From positions 1-46,785 of the forward strand of contig CASFCU010000059.1 in assembly GCA_949293285.1 (NCBI GenBank): a stretch of 46,785 bases of DNA. The letters run 5' to 3'. Below the pieces are notes generated by a model. It was not told the origin of the DNA and did not search any database. It saw nothing but the letters and a program-made list of their open reading frames with translations. The translations under genes were made by a program, and so were the position numbers. The DNA comes from an uncultured bacterium (GTDB lineage Bacteria > Bacillota_I > Bacilli_A > RF39 > UBA660). Position 1 is the first letter of the stretch. Every line of letters starts with the position of its first letter. This document shows, one piece after another, positions 1-31,486 of this stretch.

Positions 1-21
1 AGTATTATATACTTTATTCAT
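1..21 (-). CDS. 5' end of a leftward gene cut by the window edge (MNKVYNT...)
   Basis: Minus strand reads AAAGGAG (plus 28-34), a 6-nt spacer, then ATG (plus 21-19) followed by AAT AAA GTA TAT AAT ACT. Only 7 codons are visible, so there is no product call. Confidence 0.3.
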
Positions 22-284
22 ATGGGACTCCTTTTATTATTGGGATTTTAATTTTATTATATCAGAAGGGTCCCATATAAGCTTAATAGAAACGAAAATA
101 AATTAGAGGAAGAAACACTCTAATTTTCTTTTGATAAAAAACTGTCCGTAACTAAGATTTGTAGTAGAGTAAAGCATAAGTGTGAGTGTCCGTCCTATTG
201 CTTTGCTTATCCCACGAAAAACCTTTTTCGTGGGGAAATTATAAATTATGAGTTAATTGTATAAATTTATATAAATTAACTTAG

Positions 285-420
285 GATTATACTGATAAAC
301 TGATTTGGCTTTTGTCCCCTAACAACTTCAATGGCACTAATGCTAACGTGTTCAAGGTGAATCCTGCCTCTAGTTTGAACAACAACAACGTCGATAACGT
401 TGATGGGGCCCGCGCCCGGC
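285..420 (+). repeat. DGR template repeat (TR) candidate with 3' G/C-only clamp
   Basis: Local GC island in AT-rich DNA. An open frame from 285 reads DYTDKLIWLLSPNNFNGTNANVFKVNPASSLNNNNVDNVDGARAR. 11 of 33 codons between 321 and 419 are AAY (Asn). The TR ends in GGGGCCCGCGCCCGGC (405-420). There is no start codon or RBS, so it is not a gene. The exact 5' boundary is uncertain. Confidence 0.75.
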
Positions 421-442
421 AATTTCCTTTAATTCATTTACG

Positions 443-480
443 GCTATTTTTATAGTAATAATGCTATGGTGAAAAATAGC
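443..480 (+). other. Stem-loop in the TR-avd spacer
   Basis: GCTATTTTT (443-451) pairs with AAAAATAGC (472-480). An inner ATAG/CTAT pairing lies in the loop. Confidence 0.6.
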
Positions 481-539
481 TATTCACTAAAGTGAAACAA
501 GTATAATTCTATGGGATATTCCCAAAAAATCTTGTAGAC

Positions 540-581
540 AAACTGCTTATAGTTAGTAAAGTTTGAAAACTATAGCAGTTT
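540..581 (+). other. Long stem-loop just upstream of the avd RBS
   Basis: AAACTGC-T-TATAGTT (540-554) pairs with AACTATAGCAGTTT (568-581). The stem is about 13 bp with a one-base bulge. Confidence 0.6.
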
Positions 582-604
582 TAGCTACAACTGTGAGGTT
601 TACT

Positions 605-967
605 ATGAATAACAATACAAGTAGTAAAGATTTTAGTTTATATAACAAAGTAGTTGATTTGGATAATTATATTAATCGATATATAGCAAACAACATTTCA
701 TCTGTTCGTAGAGATATTAGAATACACCTTTTAGATGAGATATATAATCTTTCAAAAAATATTTTTTATGCATTATATAATAAGGGAAATATTAGAATGA
801 AATATTTAATAGAATTACAAGTTAATATTTCTTTAATTGATATGTTTCTTTTGAAACTAAGAAATCTTAACACAGTTAAAAAAAGTTACATAGACGTTTC
901 TATATCTAAACTTAGTGATATTAAAAATATTATTTACGGTTGGAAATTTAATGAAGAAAAGAAATAG
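605..967 (+). CDS. avd: Avd-like accessory variability determinant (four-helix-bundle protein)
   Basis: 120 aa, basic and helical, with the pattern of four-helix-bundle / 23S-IVS-type proteins (ends ...IKNIIYGW). GAGG lies 7 nt upstream of ATG 605. It overlaps the RT start by 17 nt. The TTG at 563 in the ORF track lies inside the hairpin and is unlikely to be the start. Confidence 0.8.
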   Translation: MNNNTSSKDFSLYNKVVDLDNYINRYIANNISSVRRDIRIHLLDEIYNLSKNIFYALYNKGNIRMKYLIELQVNISLIDMFLLKLRNLNTVKKSYIDVSISKLSDIKNIIYGWKFNEEKK

Positions 968-2438
968 TATTACCTATGATACAGAACTCTCTATTGATAA
1001 TATTTATAACATGTGGAATGTCATTCGTAAGACTTGTAAAAACAAAAAAGCTCTTTTGAATTTTTCTATGAATTTATCTACAAATATTGACTATATCTAC
1101 AAAGCATTAAAAAATAGAACATATAGTCCTTATAAATATAACACTTTTATGATTTTTGAACCTAAAGCAAGACTAGTTATGAGTAGTTCTATTCGTGACA
1201 AAATAGTTAATCATTTTGTAGCTAATTATTATCTTATTCCCTACTTAGAAAAAAGTCTCATTGATGTGAATGTGGCTACTAGGAAAAAAAGGGGAAGCTC
1301 TTATGCTATGTACCTTATTAAAAAGTATTTTAATAAAATATTAATTAATAATGCTAAAAAAGAAATATATTGTTTAAAGATAGATATTAGTAAATATTTT
1401 TATTCTATAAATCACAATATACTAATAAAAAAAATAGAGAAAAAAATTTATGATCAAGATATTATTCATTTAGTTAAGTTGATAATTAGTGAGACTAATA
1501 AAGATTATATTAATGATTCTATTTATCAATATAATAAAATTTATAATACTGATATTCCTTTATATGGGAATGATAGAGGATTGAGTATTGGTGCTATGAC
1601 TAGCCAATTTTTAGCCATTTTTTATCTTAATGATTTGAATCATTTTATTAAAGAAAAATTAAAATGTAAATATTACGTTAGATATATGGATGATCTAATA
1701 ATTTTAGACTGTGATAAAGAAAAACTTAAAGAAATTTGGAAATTGATTGTATTCGAAATTGAGAAGTTAGAACTTTCAGCAAATAAAAAAAGTAATATTT
1801 ATAACTGTAGTAAAGGTTTTACTTTTTTAGGTTATAAATATAAGATAACTAACAATAAGTTAAAAATTAGCTTTAATCGTAAAACTTATTTTAAAATTAA
1901 AAAGAAATTAAAGACTCTATATAGATATGATAGGATTAAGTTTAATAAATCACTTGATAGCTATTGGGGATACTTTAGTAATTGTTATACTTTAAAGAAA
2001 GGAAGTTTTAAAATGAAATTAATAGATATCTATAAGTTGTATAAAGAAAACCATTTCGATACTTTAATCATTGTTAAAGATGGAATTTTTTATAAAAGCT
2101 TTTATAATGATGCTAAGATATTGTGGTATTTATTTAACTATAAATATATTAATGATTCTGTCTCTTTTGGTAATGTTCCTTATGATAAAGTAGTTTCTAA
2201 ATTGAAAAGAAATGATATTAATTTTATAATTTTTGATAAAGAAAAAGAGCTTTTATCCTTAATAAAAGAAGATAATACCTATCATTCTTACTCTGATTTG
2301 GCAAATAAATCTTATGATAAAAGATTAAAAATTGATTTACTTTTGAAAAAGTTAGAATTTATTTTAGATAATAATTATAGTTCTTATCAAAAGATAGATT
2401 CTTATCTTGAAAATTTTAATTCATCTTCTGATAATTAA
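951..2438 (+). CDS. DGR-type reverse transcriptase with C-terminal MutS domain-I-like extension
   Basis: RT motifs present: FEPKARLVMSSSIRDKIVNH, ATRKKRGS, KIDISKYFYSINH, GLSIGAMTSQ ([I/L]GxxxSQ, the DGR hallmark) and YVRYMDDLIIL (YMDD). The C-terminal ~140 aa (nt 2013 onward) align to the MutS N-terminal domain. The start is taken at ATG 951 (MKKRNSITYD). Confidence 0.9.
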   Translation: MKKRNSITYDTELSIDNIYNMWNVIRKTCKNKKALLNFSMNLSTNIDYIYKALKNRTYSPYKYNTFMIFEPKARLVMSSSIRDKIVNHFVANYYLIPYLEKSLIDVNVATRKKRGSSYAMYLIKKYFNKILINNAKKEIYCLKIDISKYFYSINHNILIKKIEKKIYDQDIIHLVKLIISETNKDYINDSIYQYNKIYNTDIPLYGNDRGLSIGAMTSQFLAIFYLNDLNHFIKEKLKCKYYVRYMDDLIILDCDKEKLKEIWKLIVFEIEKLELSANKKSNIYNCSKGFTFLGYKYKITNNKLKISFNRKTYFKIKKKLKTLYRYDRIKFNKSLDSYWGYFSNCYTLKKGSFKMKLIDIYKLYKENHFDTLIIVKDGIFYKSFYNDAKILWYLFNYKYINDSVSFGNVPYDKVVSKLKRNDINFIIFDKEKELLSLIKEDNTYHSYSDLANKSYDKRLKIDLLLKKLEFILDNNYSSYQKIDSYLENFNSSSDN

Positions 2439-2542
2439 GTAAAGACAAGCAGTTGAAAAGCAAATGAAAGGTAAGATAACCCAAAGAGATATGTTTGACA
2501 AAATTATTCATATATATTAGAATTTATTATAGGAGGAATGAT

Positions 2543-3061
2543 ATGGATAATAGAGATAAAAAGAATATAATGATTGTTGCCCTTTTAGTAGCAGTAGTAT
2601 TTATGTCAGTAGGATATGCCTTATTGTCAGCTCAATTAGATGTAAAAGGAACGACCACTATAGTAGACCCTGTGTGGGATGTCAAAATTACCTCTATAAG
2701 CAGTACAGAAACAGAGGGAAATGCAACTAGTATCGATGCAATGGTTGAAAACAGATTCTCTGCAAAATTCAATGCCCAATTTCAAGCACCTGGAGATAAA
2801 ATAACATATGTAGTGAATGTTAAAAATGAGGGAACGATAAGTGCAGTATTGAATTCAATTACAATTACTCCTGATGATTATGCAGATGGATTTATAGTCT
2901 ATACAATAGATGGCTTAGAAGTAGGGGATACATTGAATGTCGGAGAAACTAAAGTATTTACAATTTCTGCAACCTACAATGAAGAGATAGAAGGAACACC
3001 ACAAGAGGAAGATTTGACAAAAGAGATCACTTTAATACTAGATTATGTACAAAATAAGTAA
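2543..3061 (+). CDS. Small secreted beta-rich protein with N-terminal signal-anchor; candidate SipW substrate (TasA/camelysin-like by context)
   Basis: AGGAGG at 2531-2536 precedes ATG 2543. The N-terminus is basic, followed by a hydrophobic segment and then ...GYALLSAQLDVKGT. The gene sits directly upstream of a SipW-type peptidase gene. The family call rests mainly on context. Confidence 0.5.
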   Translation: MDNRDKKNIMIVALLVAVVFMSVGYALLSAQLDVKGTTTIVDPVWDVKITSISSTETEGNATSIDAMVENRFSAKFNAQFQAPGDKITYVVNVKNEGTISAVLNSITITPDDYADGFIVYTIDGLEVGDTLNVGETKVFTISATYNEEIEGTPQEEDLTKEITLILDYVQNK

Positions 3062-3127
3062 TTTTTTATAAGTTACTTTTTTTTTGCTCATTTATGTTTT
3101 ATAATAATTTCATAATAGGAGCTTGTT

Positions 3128-4273
3128 ATGAAAAACAGAAAAATTATTTTAATGTACATTATTTTATTAGTATATATCATAGCTAATAATTATGTAATCA
3201 TATCACCATTTGCAAAATATTATAATTTATTAATAAATCCATTATTATTACTAATAGTAGCAATGATTTTCTACGTATTATTTCCAAAAAAACAAAGAAA
3301 AATTAGATATAAATATGAACAAATTCAAAATATTATTATCATCTTATTCATCTATTCTATGATATATTTCTTATCAGGATTAATATTTGGGTATGAATAT
3401 TCTATATATGGAAGGGACCTATCTACGATAATTCAAAATATTTATTCCTTCATAACGGTTATTATTTTAAGTGAATATATAAGGAACAAATTAGTAGTAA
3501 ATACTGAAGATAATGCTATAAATAATGTATTAATATCCCTTTTTTTATTATCTATGAGTACAAATTTTACTTATTTAGTCAACCATCTTTATCCCTTTTC
3601 TACAGGGTTTAAATATATGACCAGTAATTTTATACCCGATTTAGTTACAACCTTTATACTCACTTACCTATCCAGAACAACAGGATTAAAAGCTACAATA
3701 ATTTATAGAAGTTGGCTTAGATTAATACCAATAATATTACCAATACTACCTAAATTACCTTGGATACTAACATCTATAATAGGAATTGTTCTCCCCATGG
3801 TAATATACTTTAATATAAGTTATCTAACTATGATGTACGATAGAAAAAATCGAAGATTTTCATTAAATAAAAATGATAAGGGAACAACAATTCTAACAAT
3901 CATAGTAATCATGTTCGTTCTCTTTATCCTAAAAATATTTAAATATTTTCCAATTGCAGTATTATCTAACAGCATGGAAACCACTTTTTCAAAAGGAGAT
4001 GCTGTAATTATCGAAAAGATTGATAAAAATTCTTTGGGACAATTAAAAGTATATGATATAATTTATTATAAGAAAAATAATAAACTTATCATACATCGGA
4101 TAGAACAAATCGAAGAAATAGACAATAAGAGAGTATTTATTACAAAAGGGGACAACAATCCTACAAAAGACCCTTGGTATGTATATGAAGAAGATATCAT
4201 TGGCATTATGAAATTCAAAATACCATGTCTGGGATATCCAGCAGTGTGGTTTAATGAAGCAATAAATAATTAG
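3128..4273 (+). CDS. sipW: Polytopic membrane domain fused to SipW/Sec11-type signal peptidase I
   Basis: The C-terminal ~110 aa read AVLSNSMETTFSKGDAVIIEK...IIHRI...ITKGDNNPTKDPW, matching S26B-type Ser/His/Asp boxes. The N-terminal ~270 aa are multi-TM. The RBS is TAGGAG. Confidence 0.8.
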   Translation: MKNRKIILMYIILLVYIIANNYVIISPFAKYYNLLINPLLLLIVAMIFYVLFPKKQRKIRYKYEQIQNIIIILFIYSMIYFLSGLIFGYEYSIYGRDLSTIIQNIYSFITVIILSEYIRNKLVVNTEDNAINNVLISLFLLSMSTNFTYLVNHLYPFSTGFKYMTSNFIPDLVTTFILTYLSRTTGLKATIIYRSWLRLIPIILPILPKLPWILTSIIGIVLPMVIYFNISYLTMMYDRKNRRFSLNKNDKGTTILTIIVIMFVLFILKIFKYFPIAVLSNSMETTFSKGDAVIIEKIDKNSLGQLKVYDIIYYKKNNKLIIHRIEQIEEIDNKRVFITKGDNNPTKDPWYVYEEDIIGIMKFKIPCLGYPAVWFNEAINN

Positions 4274-18343: not shown

Positions 18344-18682
18344 ATGTATCAAGAACAATTTAATTTATCTCCTAAAGACATATTAGAAAAAGAATTCAAA
18401 ATTGATACTAGGGGATATCGATTAAAAGAAGTGGACCAATATTTAGATCTTATTATTGGAGACTATGAACAATTCTTTAAAATCCTTAAACAATACGACA
18501 AAGAAAAAGAAGAACTATTAGATGAGATAATGAACTTGAAACAGGAAATTCGTAACTTAAAAATGAGCATAGAGATAGCAAAAGCTTCTGATAGTGATGA
18601 TACTAGTAAAACTATTTCTAATGTCGATGTAATAAGAAGATTATCTCAACTTGAAAAAATTGTGTATGGCAAAGATGAATAA
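18344..18682 (+). CDS. gpsB: Cell-cycle protein GpsB (DivIVA-domain)
   Basis: LSPKDILEKEFKIDTRGYRLKEVDQYLDLIIGDYE followed by a coiled coil. gpsB-rnpB adjacency matches B. subtilis. Confidence 0.85.
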   Translation: MYQEQFNLSPKDILEKEFKIDTRGYRLKEVDQYLDLIIGDYEQFFKILKQYDKEKEELLDEIMNLKQEIRNLKMSIEIAKASDSDDTSKTISNVDVIRRLSQLEKIVYGKDE

Positions 18683-19035
18683 TATTTTGGCAAACGCTAT
18701 ATTGATATAATATAGAGGAAAGTCCATGCTCACACAAACTGAAATGTTTGTAGTGTTTGTGCTAGAGGAAAAAATAACTCTAGGTAGCCTTTTGGCTAAC
18801 GGCAATGAAATAGTCTAAGTCAAACAGGATATGACTAAAGTAGTTATAAAGTGTCATAGTGACGAAGAAGCTGGAAACGGCGGAAGTGGAACGTGATAAA
18901 CCCCGCAAGTGAGAAACTCAAATATTGGTAGAGGAGCCTTAACAAAGGAATCAAACGGAGTTAAGGACTAACGAGAGTTAGTAGATAAATGTTTGCCACC
19001 TAGAAATAGGAACAGAACATGGCTTATAAAATATT
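18683..19035 (+). ncRNA. rnpB: RNase P RNA, bacterial type B
   Basis: GAGGAAAGTCCATGCTCACAC, AGTGACGAAG, GTGGAACGTGATAAACCCCGCAAGTGAGAAACTCAAATATTGGTAGAGGAGCC and GGAACAGAACATGGCTTA closely track B. subtilis RNase P RNA. P1 pairs AATATTTT with AAAATATT. Ends are accurate to about +/-5 nt. Confidence 0.95.
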
Positions 19036-29211: not shown

Positions 29212-31266
29212 TTATTTTTGACTTATATTACTATAACCTAGAATATGTTTTTGAACATTCAACAAATCGATAGCAGAAACATTACCATCTCGATTAGTAT
29301 CAGCCGCTCTTGCATAAGATCCAAGTAAAGTAGTATAACCTAAAATATGCTTTTGAACATTCAACAAATCGATAGCAGAAACATTACCATCTCCGTTATT
29401 ATCTCCATATATAACAACTTCTAACGTTTTTGACTCACTATTCGTAGAAATAATTATTTTATCACCGGTAACAATAGTTCCTTCATTTTTATTTCTACCT
29501 TGTCTATCCTGAACATTAACACTAACAGTTTCATAATTTTTTATCAATTTTTCTATCAAACCATCTACATTAGTAGAAAAGGTAACATTCCATAAATAAT
29601 AATCATCATAACTATATCCACTAGCACTCAAAACATCAGCAATTTTCACGGTTACTTCATCAGAATCATCCTTTTTTTCTTCTCTTTTTACAGTTAAATT
29701 ATAAGTCTTAACTGCTCCATTTTGAGCTGTGACTACAATAGAGAAAGAATTGCTATCACCAGTAAGAATTTTATCACCAGTACCCACTATTTTAGCTTTG
29801 CTATTAACAGCAAGTGCAGATATATTAATTTCTTCAGAATATGGAACGGTAACCGTATAATTAACAGTACCCCCACTAAAATTAGTAACAGAAATTCCAT
29901 TTACCTTCAACTCTTTAAGCCAATTATTAGGATTTCCCAAATTTGGTAGGGTAGTCTTTTCCGGCATCCCATCAAATATTGGAATAGAAAAAGAAAATGC
30001 TTCATCAATAATCCCCATACTATTATAAGAGTTATAAGTGGTAACACTAGGAGATACAAGTCCTATGATATTAGTAGTATACTGATGCCACATCCCTTTT
30101 GTAGCAGTAGGAGATAAATTAAATTTTTGAAAATAGGAAGTATATTGTCCACATTGTACATAGTTTACGGTAATCTTATAAGCTCCTTCGACAATTGCTT
30201 TTTGTTGAGTATTCCACTGATAAAGTTTGGCAGTCTGAAGAGATTTTAACTTAGGATCCTTACTAGATGATGCACCAATATTAAAAAAATTATAATACCC
30301 AGTATAATCTACTCCGTCCGATAAAACTCCAGCTTTTCCATTCGTAACAATATTAGTATCACTAAGTCCAACCTCTTGACGAGATAAGGCAGCTAAATAC
30401 ATAGGAGAAACATTATACTTTTCGGAAGCTTCCATAAAATAAGAAGTATATTGTCTCATAAAATCCGAAGAAAGAATCTTATTTACAGTATCTGCATTTT
30501 GATAATCGGAATTGTAAAGCAAATCTTCAAACATAAATATATAACTTTCGGTAAGAAAATTTCTAGGATCCATATAATAAGCAATTGTCTGACTATTAGC
30601 TTGATACCAATAAAGTCCATCATGAGCAAAAAACTTATCTAACTCATAATCATAATTTCCGGCTTCCACAGATAAATATCCTTCTAAACCTTGCTCTTTG
30701 GCACTAGCATTGACATTATACAAACTTGTACCAGAAGAATTTTGCTCACTAAGAGCTTCACTCCAAGTATATTTAGATTTAACCCCTTTAAATATCCAAG
30801 TTGGGTGAATTTTATGTAAAGCCCTTAATTTCACTTTATAACTTTCTGGAAATCCTTGACTATCCAAATATGCCTCAAACTCCTCATCGGTCATATTGGC
30901 CATTTCCGAATTAGAAACATCCGTAGTAGGTGGAACAACGTCATCCACTTCCACTGTTTCAAGATCTTCTATATAAGTGGAACATCCGTATCCTCTATAA
31001 GAAACCCCATTTTCTTCATATATAATTTCTGCCCACGGATCATCACATCCTTCCCCATCACTATAAGAAAGGATAGTAACTCTAGCATTGTGTGGGACAC
31101 CAGTAATTCTATCATAAGCTGTACTAGGACCACTTCTAAGTTTAATTCCTATAGTAGAGGAAATTCTTCCAGTAGTTTTTTCTAATGCTTGAACTGAAAA
31201 TGTAACAAGAAAAAAAGAACATAACATCAAAAAAACTACAGGGATTATATTTCTTCTTTTTTTCAT
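29212..31266 (-). CDS. Secreted SH3b + GH73-type N-acetylglucosaminidase + cadherin-like domain + type-I dockerin protein
   Basis: SH3b (IGIKLRSGPSTAYDRI). Glucosaminidase core (YLAALSRQEVG...YNFFNIGA). Then WLKELKVNGISV...AQNGAVKTYNLTVKR. The C-terminus has duplicated DxNxDGxVSAIDLLNVQKHILGY calcium-binding repeats. The start is set at MKKRRNI after GGAGGTG. Confidence 0.8.
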   Translation of the reverse strand: MKKRRNIIPVVFLMLCSFFLVTFSVQALEKTTGRISSTIGIKLRSGPSTAYDRITGVPHNARVTILSYSDGEGCDDPWAEIIYEENGVSYRGYGCSTYIEDLETVEVDDVVPPTTDVSNSEMANMTDEEFEAYLDSQGFPESYKVKLRALHKIHPTWIFKGVKSKYTWSEALSEQNSSGTSLYNVNASAKEQGLEGYLSVEAGNYDYELDKFFAHDGLYWYQANSQTIAYYMDPRNFLTESYIFMFEDLLYNSDYQNADTVNKILSSDFMRQYTSYFMEASEKYNVSPMYLAALSRQEVGLSDTNIVTNGKAGVLSDGVDYTGYYNFFNIGASSSKDPKLKSLQTAKLYQWNTQQKAIVEGAYKITVNYVQCGQYTSYFQKFNLSPTATKGMWHQYTTNIIGLVSPSVTTYNSYNSMGIIDEAFSFSIPIFDGMPEKTTLPNLGNPNNWLKELKVNGISVTNFSGGTVNYTVTVPYSEEINISALAVNSKAKIVGTGDKILTGDSNSFSIVVTAQNGAVKTYNLTVKREEKKDDSDEVTVKIADVLSASGYSYDDYYLWNVTFSTNVDGLIEKLIKNYETVSVNVQDRQGRNKNEGTIVTGDKIIISTNSESKTLEVVIYGDNNGDGNVSAIDLLNVQKHILGYTTLLGSYARAADTNRDGNVSAIDLLNVQKHILGYSNISQK
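29232..29392. repeat. Two near-identical 59-bp direct repeats encoding the two dockerin segments
   Basis: 29232-29290 versus 29334-29392, offset by 102 bp (34 codons). Only 2 mismatches. Confidence 0.9.
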
Positions 31267-31486
31267 AAACACCTCCATTTTCATACTTTAACAAGTATAA
31301 TTATATAATATAAAAAGTAAAGAGTCTACTAATCGTCAATTCTTTCCAGACAAATCGAAATTATTAGACATTTTTTTACAAAAAAAATCACGAAAAAGCA
31401 AGAAAAAGATAAAAAAAGCACTAGAGAAAAACTAGTTCTTAATAAATGAATAAAAATTTGTTAAAATGTAAATGATGGGTGAAATT

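Follow-up and report, generated by a model that had tools for sequence, protein, structure and literature searches.

The window analyzed here appears to comprise the whole of contig CASFCU010000059.1 (46,785 nt), and its positions 157-2438 very probably represent the template-and-enzyme half of a chromosomal diversity-generating retroelement (DGR). The element is a genuine DGR and belongs to a large, little-described family from gut Bacilli. Throughout this family, the cassette has the order target gene (with the variable repeat, VR, at its 3' end), hairpin, AT-rich palindrome, template repeat (TR), structured spacer RNA, avd, and reverse transcriptase (RT) gene. The left end of the window lies approximately 300 nt 5' of the TR. 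A preliminary description of this DNA had proposed a complete DGR core consisting of three co-oriented parts, namely a TR-like island, a small open reading frame (ORF), and an RT. All three parts were located (Table 1), and the reading as a DGR core is supported by the match of the RT to that of a Bordetella phage DGR, the fold of Avd, and an adenine-specific TR/VR pair in the same species. The target gene is cut off in this contig, and its VR is absent.

For the TR, the sequence composition is distinctive. The GC content is 0.42-0.45 at 301-450, compared with 0.13-0.30 around this island. The translation of the island in a single frame is WLLSPNNFNGTNANVFKVNPASSLNNNNVDNVDGAR, and a G/C-only run, GGGGCCCGCGCCCGGC, forms its end. 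All 28 adenines in the first 108 nt occupy codon positions 1 or 2 (14, 14, and 0 at positions 1, 2, and 3, respectively), and 11 of the codons are AAY. This placement of adenines and the alignment to VRs of other strains both agree with the earlier interpretation of an in-frame, AAY-rich GC island with a terminal G/C-only clamp as a TR.

The evidence on adenine-specific variation comes from other strains of the same species and from relatives. The same-species sequence L011, which was reached via a 99%-identical Avd, has 99.3% identity to the window across 10.8 kb, rising to 100% within 157-604, which includes the TR. In L011, the VR differs from the TR by 17 mismatches at A and 1-2 at non-A positions (binomial P about 9e-9). 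In a sister strain (L012-L015), the TR and VR are colinear and differ at 14 A and two non-A positions in the 118-nt VR-matching stretch. The G/C-only clamp is common to TR and VR, and in L012 the two repeats are without difference until 12 nt further on. Among more distant members, all TR/VR mismatches are located at A in L004 (17/17) and L009 (13/13), and A-only mismatches with matching architecture were also read by eye in L007 and L023. In addition, the VR is hypervariable among strains of the species. Between L011, L012, and L014, 29-45% of the VR positions are mismatched, compared with 6-8% in the upstream flank and 1-2% in the downstream flank. The A-specific TR/VR pair that defines a DGR is found in the species, but not in this contig.

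Two further observations concern these repeats. In L014 (148-600), the VR is closer to the window-type TR (19 A and three non-A differences in the VR-matching stretch) than to the adjoining sister-type TR (42 differences, 26 of them at A). Recombination between strains could account for this mismatch, as could a chimera in the assembly or homing from a different TR allele. Moreover, exact-pattern scans for the TR/VR pair with A masked to N did not match even the TR in collections of genome contigs and metagenome contigs, so the organism with this TR allele is not in either collection.

The RT gene contains all of the motifs that had been quoted from it, namely FEPKARLV (residue 69), RDKIVNH (82), RKKRGS (111), IGAMTSQ (213), and YMDD (245), including the DGR-type motif 4 (IGxxxSQ). 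Among the sequences in the Protein Data Bank (PDB), the RT of the Bordetella phage DGR (bRT; 8ub7_A, E = 2.7e-23) scores best, 14 orders of magnitude ahead of other solved relatives (best group II RT, 7e-9). In the alignment with bRT, IGAMTSQ pairs with IGSLTSQ and YMDD pairs with YMDD. No retron or Abi structure was matched at E ≤ 0.01 among the PDB sequences. The profile comparison against PHROGs, which addresses the check proposed in the preliminary description, gave phrog_1423 (E = 2e-73).

The avd ORF shares its last 17 nt with the RT ORF, the start of which is at 951. Its product had been described as a basic, helical protein of 120 aa with the pattern of an Avd four-helix bundle, and its isoelectric point (pI) of 9.57, sequence match, and predicted structure all conform to this description. 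The ORF matches phrog_3206 ("Avd protein of DGR") along almost all of its length (E = 1.9e-4). The AlphaFold model has a mean predicted local distance difference test (pLDDT) score of 91.3 and contains four helices. The top 23 Foldseek matches of this model are all Avd/S23-like structures (4dwl, Avd chains B-E of 8ub7, 8ub8, 2gsc, and 2rld) with template modeling (TM) scores of 0.65-0.91, followed by a sharp drop. In addition to the PHROGs match, PF22296 (bAvd) is matched by 21 of the 37 aligned Avd family members (best 3e-8), but the window ORF is not among them and alone has no Pfam or NCBIfam match above threshold. A hidden Markov model profile of the Avd family had no match among the PDB sequences. 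Finally, the 130 Avd homologs always adjoin an RT of the same family as that of the window.

Table 1. Features of the DGR cassette and its left boundary in the window.
Feature	Position	Strand	Remarks
DGR-unrelated sequence replacing the target gene of sister strains	1-156		identity to L011 starts only at 157
Target gene remnant, last four codons and stop codon (TTT GTA GTA GAG TAA; FVVE and stop)	157..172 (codons 158-172)	+	identical to the L011 target end
Conserved hairpin, CCCACGAAAAA-CC-TTTTTCGTGGG	211-234	+	between target stop codon and TR
AT-rich palindrome, AGTTAATT-N15-AATTAACT, then conserved box AACTTAGGATT	251-288	+	immediately 5' of TR
TR	304-427	+	aligned to VRs of L011 and L014
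TR, variable part	~321-404	+	
TR, G/C clamp	405-420	+	2-nt GC insertion relative to VR
TR, tail AATTTCC	421-427	+	common to VR
Structured spacer RNA, ~180 nt	428-604	+	between TR and avd in every relative
Spacer, P1	442-451/472-481	+	encloses loop GCTATGGTG
Spacer, P2	483-487/492-496	+	
Spacer, conserved GAAACAAGTATAATTCTATGG	494-514	+	
Spacer, hairpin	513-523	+	
Spacer, outer stem	532-537/585-590	+	
Spacer, long inner stem	540-552/570-581	+	
Ribosome-binding site, GTGAGG	593-598	+	
avd (accessory variability determinant), 120 aa	605-967	+	pI 9.57; four-helix bundle
RT ORF, 495 aa	951-2438	+	
DGR-type RT domain, residues 1 to ~339	951-1967	+	RVT_1 (Pfam), E = 7e-16
RT C-terminal extension	1968-2438	+	MutS-domain-I-like module, then helical hairpin

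The spacer between the TR and avd forms an RNA with a conserved structure. For 15 spacer units from eight lineages, RNAalifold predicted 34 base pairs, and 21 of these pairs have compensatory changes. In the spacer alignment, 90.7% of the cells are paired, compared with 34-50% when the partners are slid, and the covariation score was reached by none of 500 shuffles. The Bordetella DGR requires RNA elements that follow the TR on its downstream side, and this RNA wraps the bRT-Avd complex (bioRxiv 10.1101/2023.10.23.563531). By its position, the spacer RNA of the window corresponds to this Bordetella RNA. A priming duplex between a TTTTCAC tail after the clamp and a GTGAAA in the spacer was also considered, and was dropped because the tail is not conserved in the species of the window.

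Upstream of the TR, two other elements are shared with relatives. The first is the hairpin at 211-234, the top of which (CGAAAACCCTTTCG) is conserved at the equivalent position in relatives (compared by eye and unscored) and follows the pattern CGAAAA(A)CC(C)TTT(T)TCG. The lower part of the stem varies complementarily in L007 (GCTGCG..CGCAGC), L020 (CCCCG..CGGGG), L021 (CACCCG..CGGGTG), and both L022 and L023 (CCCCACG..CGTGGGG). This hairpin is not an obvious terminator because no T-run follows it. The second element is the AT-rich palindrome with its box, the equivalent of which is present upstream of every TR unit in L007, L009, and L020-L023. This element may serve the TR RNA as a promoter or operator. 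A weak promoter-like match is located at 266-293, and the count of such matches in the region is no higher than in shuffles.

The C-terminal extension of the RT has a MutS-domain-I-like fold. The Pfam model MutS_I (PF01624) matches RT residues 359-402 with 21.6 bits, slightly above the cut-off of 20.6. The structural model of the extension (residues 340-495) has a pLDDT of 89.6, and the top 50 Foldseek matches are all domain I of MutS/MSH proteins (best E = 1.4e-4), with root-mean-square deviations of 1.3-2.8 Å over 67-98 alignment columns and one outlier of 8.5 Å. Homologs with both RT and extension account for all of the at least 120 clusters listed, and most of these have a full length of approximately 490-505 aa. 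In the alignment, DGIFYKSFYNDAK of the extension corresponds to MGDFYELFYDDAK of E. coli; Phe36 is kept and Glu38 is replaced by Lys.

The target gene can be characterized from the sister sequences. Upstream of the point that corresponds to window position 157, L011 covers 1.15 kb of the target gene, namely its 3' part, in which the ORF ends in ...YWLLSPGYFSGTLAYVFWVIPASGWNYSDYVDDVAGARPAISLKAGT...SPFVVE and stop. This partial ORF is 384 aa long (final residues DSPFVVE), and the VR-specific sequence is GGGGCCCGCCCGGCAATTTCCC. The fragment aligns over its full length, with 54-59% identity, to proteins of 514-528 aa that have a prepilin cleavage/methylation N-terminus (KKGFTLIELLAVIIILG...); the N_methyl motif was found in the nearest full-length relatives of the target (P0250 and P0251). 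The DGR target in the nearest relative (RT 64% identical) is such a pilin-like protein. Other family members have camelysin/TasA-type or other N-termini. Among the homologs of the target module (YWLLSP...GARPAISL) are proteins with PF19789/DUF6273. A homolog search with the L011 fragment did not return the target protein of the species itself and did not reach the far side of the junction at 157. A limited literature search found no paper that links DGRs to prepilin-type targets, which is weak evidence of novelty.

Several points weigh against the interpretation of the cassette as a working DGR with the properties described above. First, the search for a TR/VR pair that the preliminary description proposed gave A-specific pairs in L011 and in relatives, but the 46.8-kb window contains no VR or second TR copy on either strand, even with all A positions free to vary. 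The target is displaced or lost in the lineage of the window. Second, the present TR of the window and L011 is not colinear with the L011 VR, because the TR has a 2-nt GC insertion in the clamp, which the VR is without, and one codon fewer in the AAC run. Transfer of the 2-nt insertion, if it occurred, would shift the reading frame of the target. Third, the VR diversity that was observed is diversity between samples. Fourth, the RT genes of the window and L011 differ by seven nonsynonymous and four synonymous changes, which are too few to indicate purifying selection. Finally, the Phe-X-Glu motif for mismatch contact is F-Y-K in the extension, compared with F-Y-E in MutS, and the Glu is not conserved. 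Shielding of the heteroduplex from repair would be a reasonable role for the extension.

The fate of the target gene in the window is linked to the junction at 157. An in-frame stop codon is located at 149-151, just upstream of the target remnant. On the minus strand of 1-156, an extended -10 box (TGATATAAT), a ribosome-binding site (AAGGAG), and an ATG at 21-19 can be read from the sequence. The gene that starts at this ATG (MNKVYNT...) faces outward and leaves the contig. The segment 1-156 is AT-rich and includes a hairpin with a 9-bp stem at 20-78. Exact matches to the window were found in L001 (43-156), L002 (55-156), and L003 (130-156), all of which have an identical RT. These three sequences share the junction yet show 5-17 single-nucleotide polymorphisms (SNPs) relative to the window beyond it, and the junction can therefore be regarded as a true variant that recurs, rather than as an assembly error. 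The contigs of the four assemblies, which were generated with different k values, start at window positions 1, 43, 55, and 130. Because all four assemblies break within 130 nt left of the junction, the most likely explanation is the insertion of a repeated element that displaced the target; deletion of the target is an alternative. The left end of the window had no match in plasmid, phage, viral, or JGI collections. A blastn search of 1-160 against plasmids and phages gave only one chance match of 49 nt, and a pattern of the left-end hairpin matched nothing in metagenome contigs or viral contigs.

Given this junction, a doubtful but possible alternative is that the cassette in the window lineage has been orphaned. 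Under this hypothesis, the target was deleted or destroyed except for its last 15 nt, and the TR, avd, and RT are a stranded DGR remnant that is currently functionless. The recurrence of the junction in assemblies that differ from the window by several SNPs, the absence of a VR from the available 46.8 kb, the indels of the TR relative to the sister-strain VR, and three RT amino acid states that are specific to the window lineage (N230, A277, and D336) are all compatible with such decay. However, both avd and the RT gene are intact, and 157-604 is identical to that of a strain that retains the target. The clustered contig starts suggest a repeat at the left, which fits an insertion that merely separates the target from the TR, and targets that are not adjacent can be used by DGRs (PMC5758913).

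The genomic context of the cassette is chromosomal. The right flank has genes for a SipW-type peptidase, a DUF5305 protein, SpoIVA, and HU, in agreement with the earlier description of a SipW locus followed by spoIVA-hup. Further to the right, the core chromosome includes genes for the CCA enzyme, PBP1, RecU, RNase P RNA, RecA, RNase Y, RNase J, PFOR, and RecG, such that the non-prophage setting described previously holds for the 44 kb to the right. The RNase P RNA (18682-19031, 287 bits) is of the bacterial class B, which is consistent with a low-GC Gram-positive chromosome. In a sister species (L026; 70-85% nucleotide identity), synteny with the window is found from 2492 onward with the same SipW-spoIVA order, and the DGR is absent. 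At L026:6595-6680, spoVIF directly precedes a 171-aa gene at the place where the window has the DGR. Because the sister species has spoVIF in its place, the cassette is an accessory insertion with its right edge between 2438 and 2492. The SipW locus was considered as part of the cassette and rejected based on the conserved synteny in DGR-free sister species and on the lack of conservation, in the nearest relative, of the gene that follows the RT.

Some other features of this flank were observed. The gene that follows the RT (in window 2543-4273) encodes a 172-aa protein, the N-terminus of which (KKNIMIVALLVAVVFMSVGYALLSAQLDVKG) looks similar, by eye, to the N-terminus of the DGR-target homolog P0241 (NMVVLFVIFIVTLTSSIGYSALQSNLKV). 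In the SipW-type peptidase, the peptidase domain (residues 254-381) is fused to a multi-pass membrane N-terminal region of approximately 250 aa. At 29224-29403, two 78-nt direct repeats are 90% identical and 102 nt apart. These repeats lie inside a minus-strand gene (29212-31284), the product of which has a dockerin type I domain, and are probably two dockerin repeat segments.

That the DGR of the window is prophage-borne and acts on a receptor-binding protein of a phage, in the manner of Bordetella phage BPP-1, is highly improbable. The left flank lies beyond the contig, and a phage collection contains 121 records of homologous DGR RTs, both of which leave room for such an origin. However, the best phage RT matches have at most 36% identity and cover only the RT domain (coverage up to 69%), and a search of IMG/VR with patterns that were back-translated peptides and too specific returned no relatives. 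The 44 kb to the right are core chromosome, seven relatives are located in differing housekeeping neighborhoods from which phage structural genes are absent, and the target is pilin-like rather than a tail fiber. In genome contigs, a search for related loci with the single RT protein as the query and the same overly specific patterns returned only two distant cyanobacterial RTs, and in viral contigs it returned none.

An RT of another class (a group II maturase, a retron, or a defense RT such as DRT/Abi) next to a coincidental AAC-rich island is hardly credible: the NCBIfam group II RT/maturase model does reach 95 bits and PADLOC DRT models reach E values down to 2e-26, but the NCBIfam scores are far under the cut-offs (95 vs. 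300; Drt3a, 54 vs. 200), group II intron RNA and other Rfam families were not found, bRT leads the solved relatives by the margin given above, and the adjacent Avd, A-specific TR/VR pairs, and conserved spacer RNA have no place in such systems. A group II intron was rejected given that no intron RNA was found, with the Rfam scan of window 1-3000 giving a single sub-threshold plastid match; a retron or defense RT was rejected based on the weaker matches and unfitting context.

The most unusual lead comes from relatives in which the TR is present in tandem arrays, with up to seven in-frame alternative units. In L009 (RT 63% identical), eight tandem TR-spacer units with a period of approximately 384 nt occupy a gene-free region of 3 kb between the VR and avd (583-3598). 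Seven of these eight units are free of stop codons in the VR frame, with lengths of 109-115 nt that are all 1 mod 3. In these seven units, the adenines are located at codon positions 1 and 2, and each unit encodes a different scaffold. The present VR of L009 is matched by unit 1 only. The eighth unit (L009:3306-3398) and a unit of L022 (580-674) have only three adenines and contain stops or have lost the frame. Each of these adenine-poor units is followed by a spacer copy; that of L022 looks divergent, and the comparison with other copies was made for L009 only. The two units look like templates with eroded adenines, for example by self-homing. In comparison, the two DGR surveys that were searched mention at most "two TRs" (PMC5758913; PMC6642488).

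A tentative hypothesis for these arrays is that the AT palindrome, TR, and spacer RNA constitute a portable unit that may have been amplified into tandem alternative templates for a single VR, adding cassette-style switching of non-adenine residues and loop length to the adenine-directed variation. The adenine-poor units of L009 and L022 would then be "burnt out" by self-homing, and the window would represent the single-unit form, with the RT-fused MutS-I-like domain protecting the heteroduplex.

For this element, we infer the following course of RNA binding, priming, and homing. The TR-spacer RNA would be transcribed, and the RT-Avd complex would bind its structured spacer. Once primed, reverse transcription would copy the TR with misincorporation opposite its 28 adenines, which all occupy codon position 1 or 2. 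The resulting cDNA would replace the VR of the type-IV-pilin-like surface protein, such that approximately 14 codons of its C-terminal ligand-binding module would be re-randomized. As a fused part of the RT, the MutS-domain-I-like module probably binds the cDNA:VR heteroduplex, which would be dense in mismatches, and may in this way keep the host mismatch repair from reverting it. In Bacteroides, deletion of the host mutS raises retrohoming 5-10 fold (bioRxiv 10.1101/2024.11.15.621889), and an accessory protein that is similar to MutS and stands alone (Msl) has been described (bioRxiv 10.1101/2024.11.15.621889; PMC5758913).

The comparison with characterized systems reveals both shared and distinct features. 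The DGR of BPP-1 (mtd-avd-TR-brt) shares with the window an RT with IGxxxSQ and YMDD motifs, the fold of a pentamer-type Avd four-helix bundle, a TR that is rich in AAC, a G/C-rich element with which both TR and VR end at the 3' side, and a structured RNA downstream of the TR. In contrast, the order in the window family is target-TR-spacer-avd-RT, with avd downstream of the TR. The window element is chromosomal instead of phage-borne, with a pilin-like instead of a tail-fiber target. Moreover, its RT has a MutS-I-like extension of 150 aa that is lacking in bRT (328 aa), and its spacer RNA has no recognizable sequence similarity to the BPP-1 RNA. The chromosomal and integrative conjugative element (ICE) DGRs of Bacteroides (bioRxiv 10.1101/2024.11.15.621889) are also found in gut bacteria, combine Avd with a factor that is similar to the MutS mismatch domain, and diversify a surface filament subunit. 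However, the MutS-like module is fused to the RT in the window and is a separate Msl in Bacteroides, and the host of the window element is a low-GC spore-former. Furthermore, the nearest full-length relatives of the target have a type IV prepilin motif, whereas the Bacteroides target is a Type V pilin (pilus adhesin). In a survey by Wu et al. (2018; PMC5758913), around 20% of the RTs from DGRs carry extensions of up to approximately 150 aa, and three have weak similarity to MutS_I. The RT of the window is of this type. Compared with these three examples, every cluster listed here combines the RT with the extension, and the fold is backed by a confident model.

In itself, the cassette in the window is one more chromosomal DGR of a gut spore-former, which is an ordinary and common kind of element. 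Leads of higher value are offered by the fusion of RT and MutS-I, by the pilin-like targets, and by the arrays of multiple templates in relatives. Taken together, these findings describe a large DGR family of low-GC gut Bacilli that had not been named before, with the RT-MutS-I combination in all of the clusters listed. The proteins that its members diversify are type-IV-pilin-like and other secreted proteins of the surface. The covariation-supported spacer RNA could become a search model for such elements, and the natural RT-MutS-I fusions provide an entry to the question of how mismatch repair is evaded by DGRs. If they are real, the multi-template arrays would represent a new way of widening the sequence space of DGRs.

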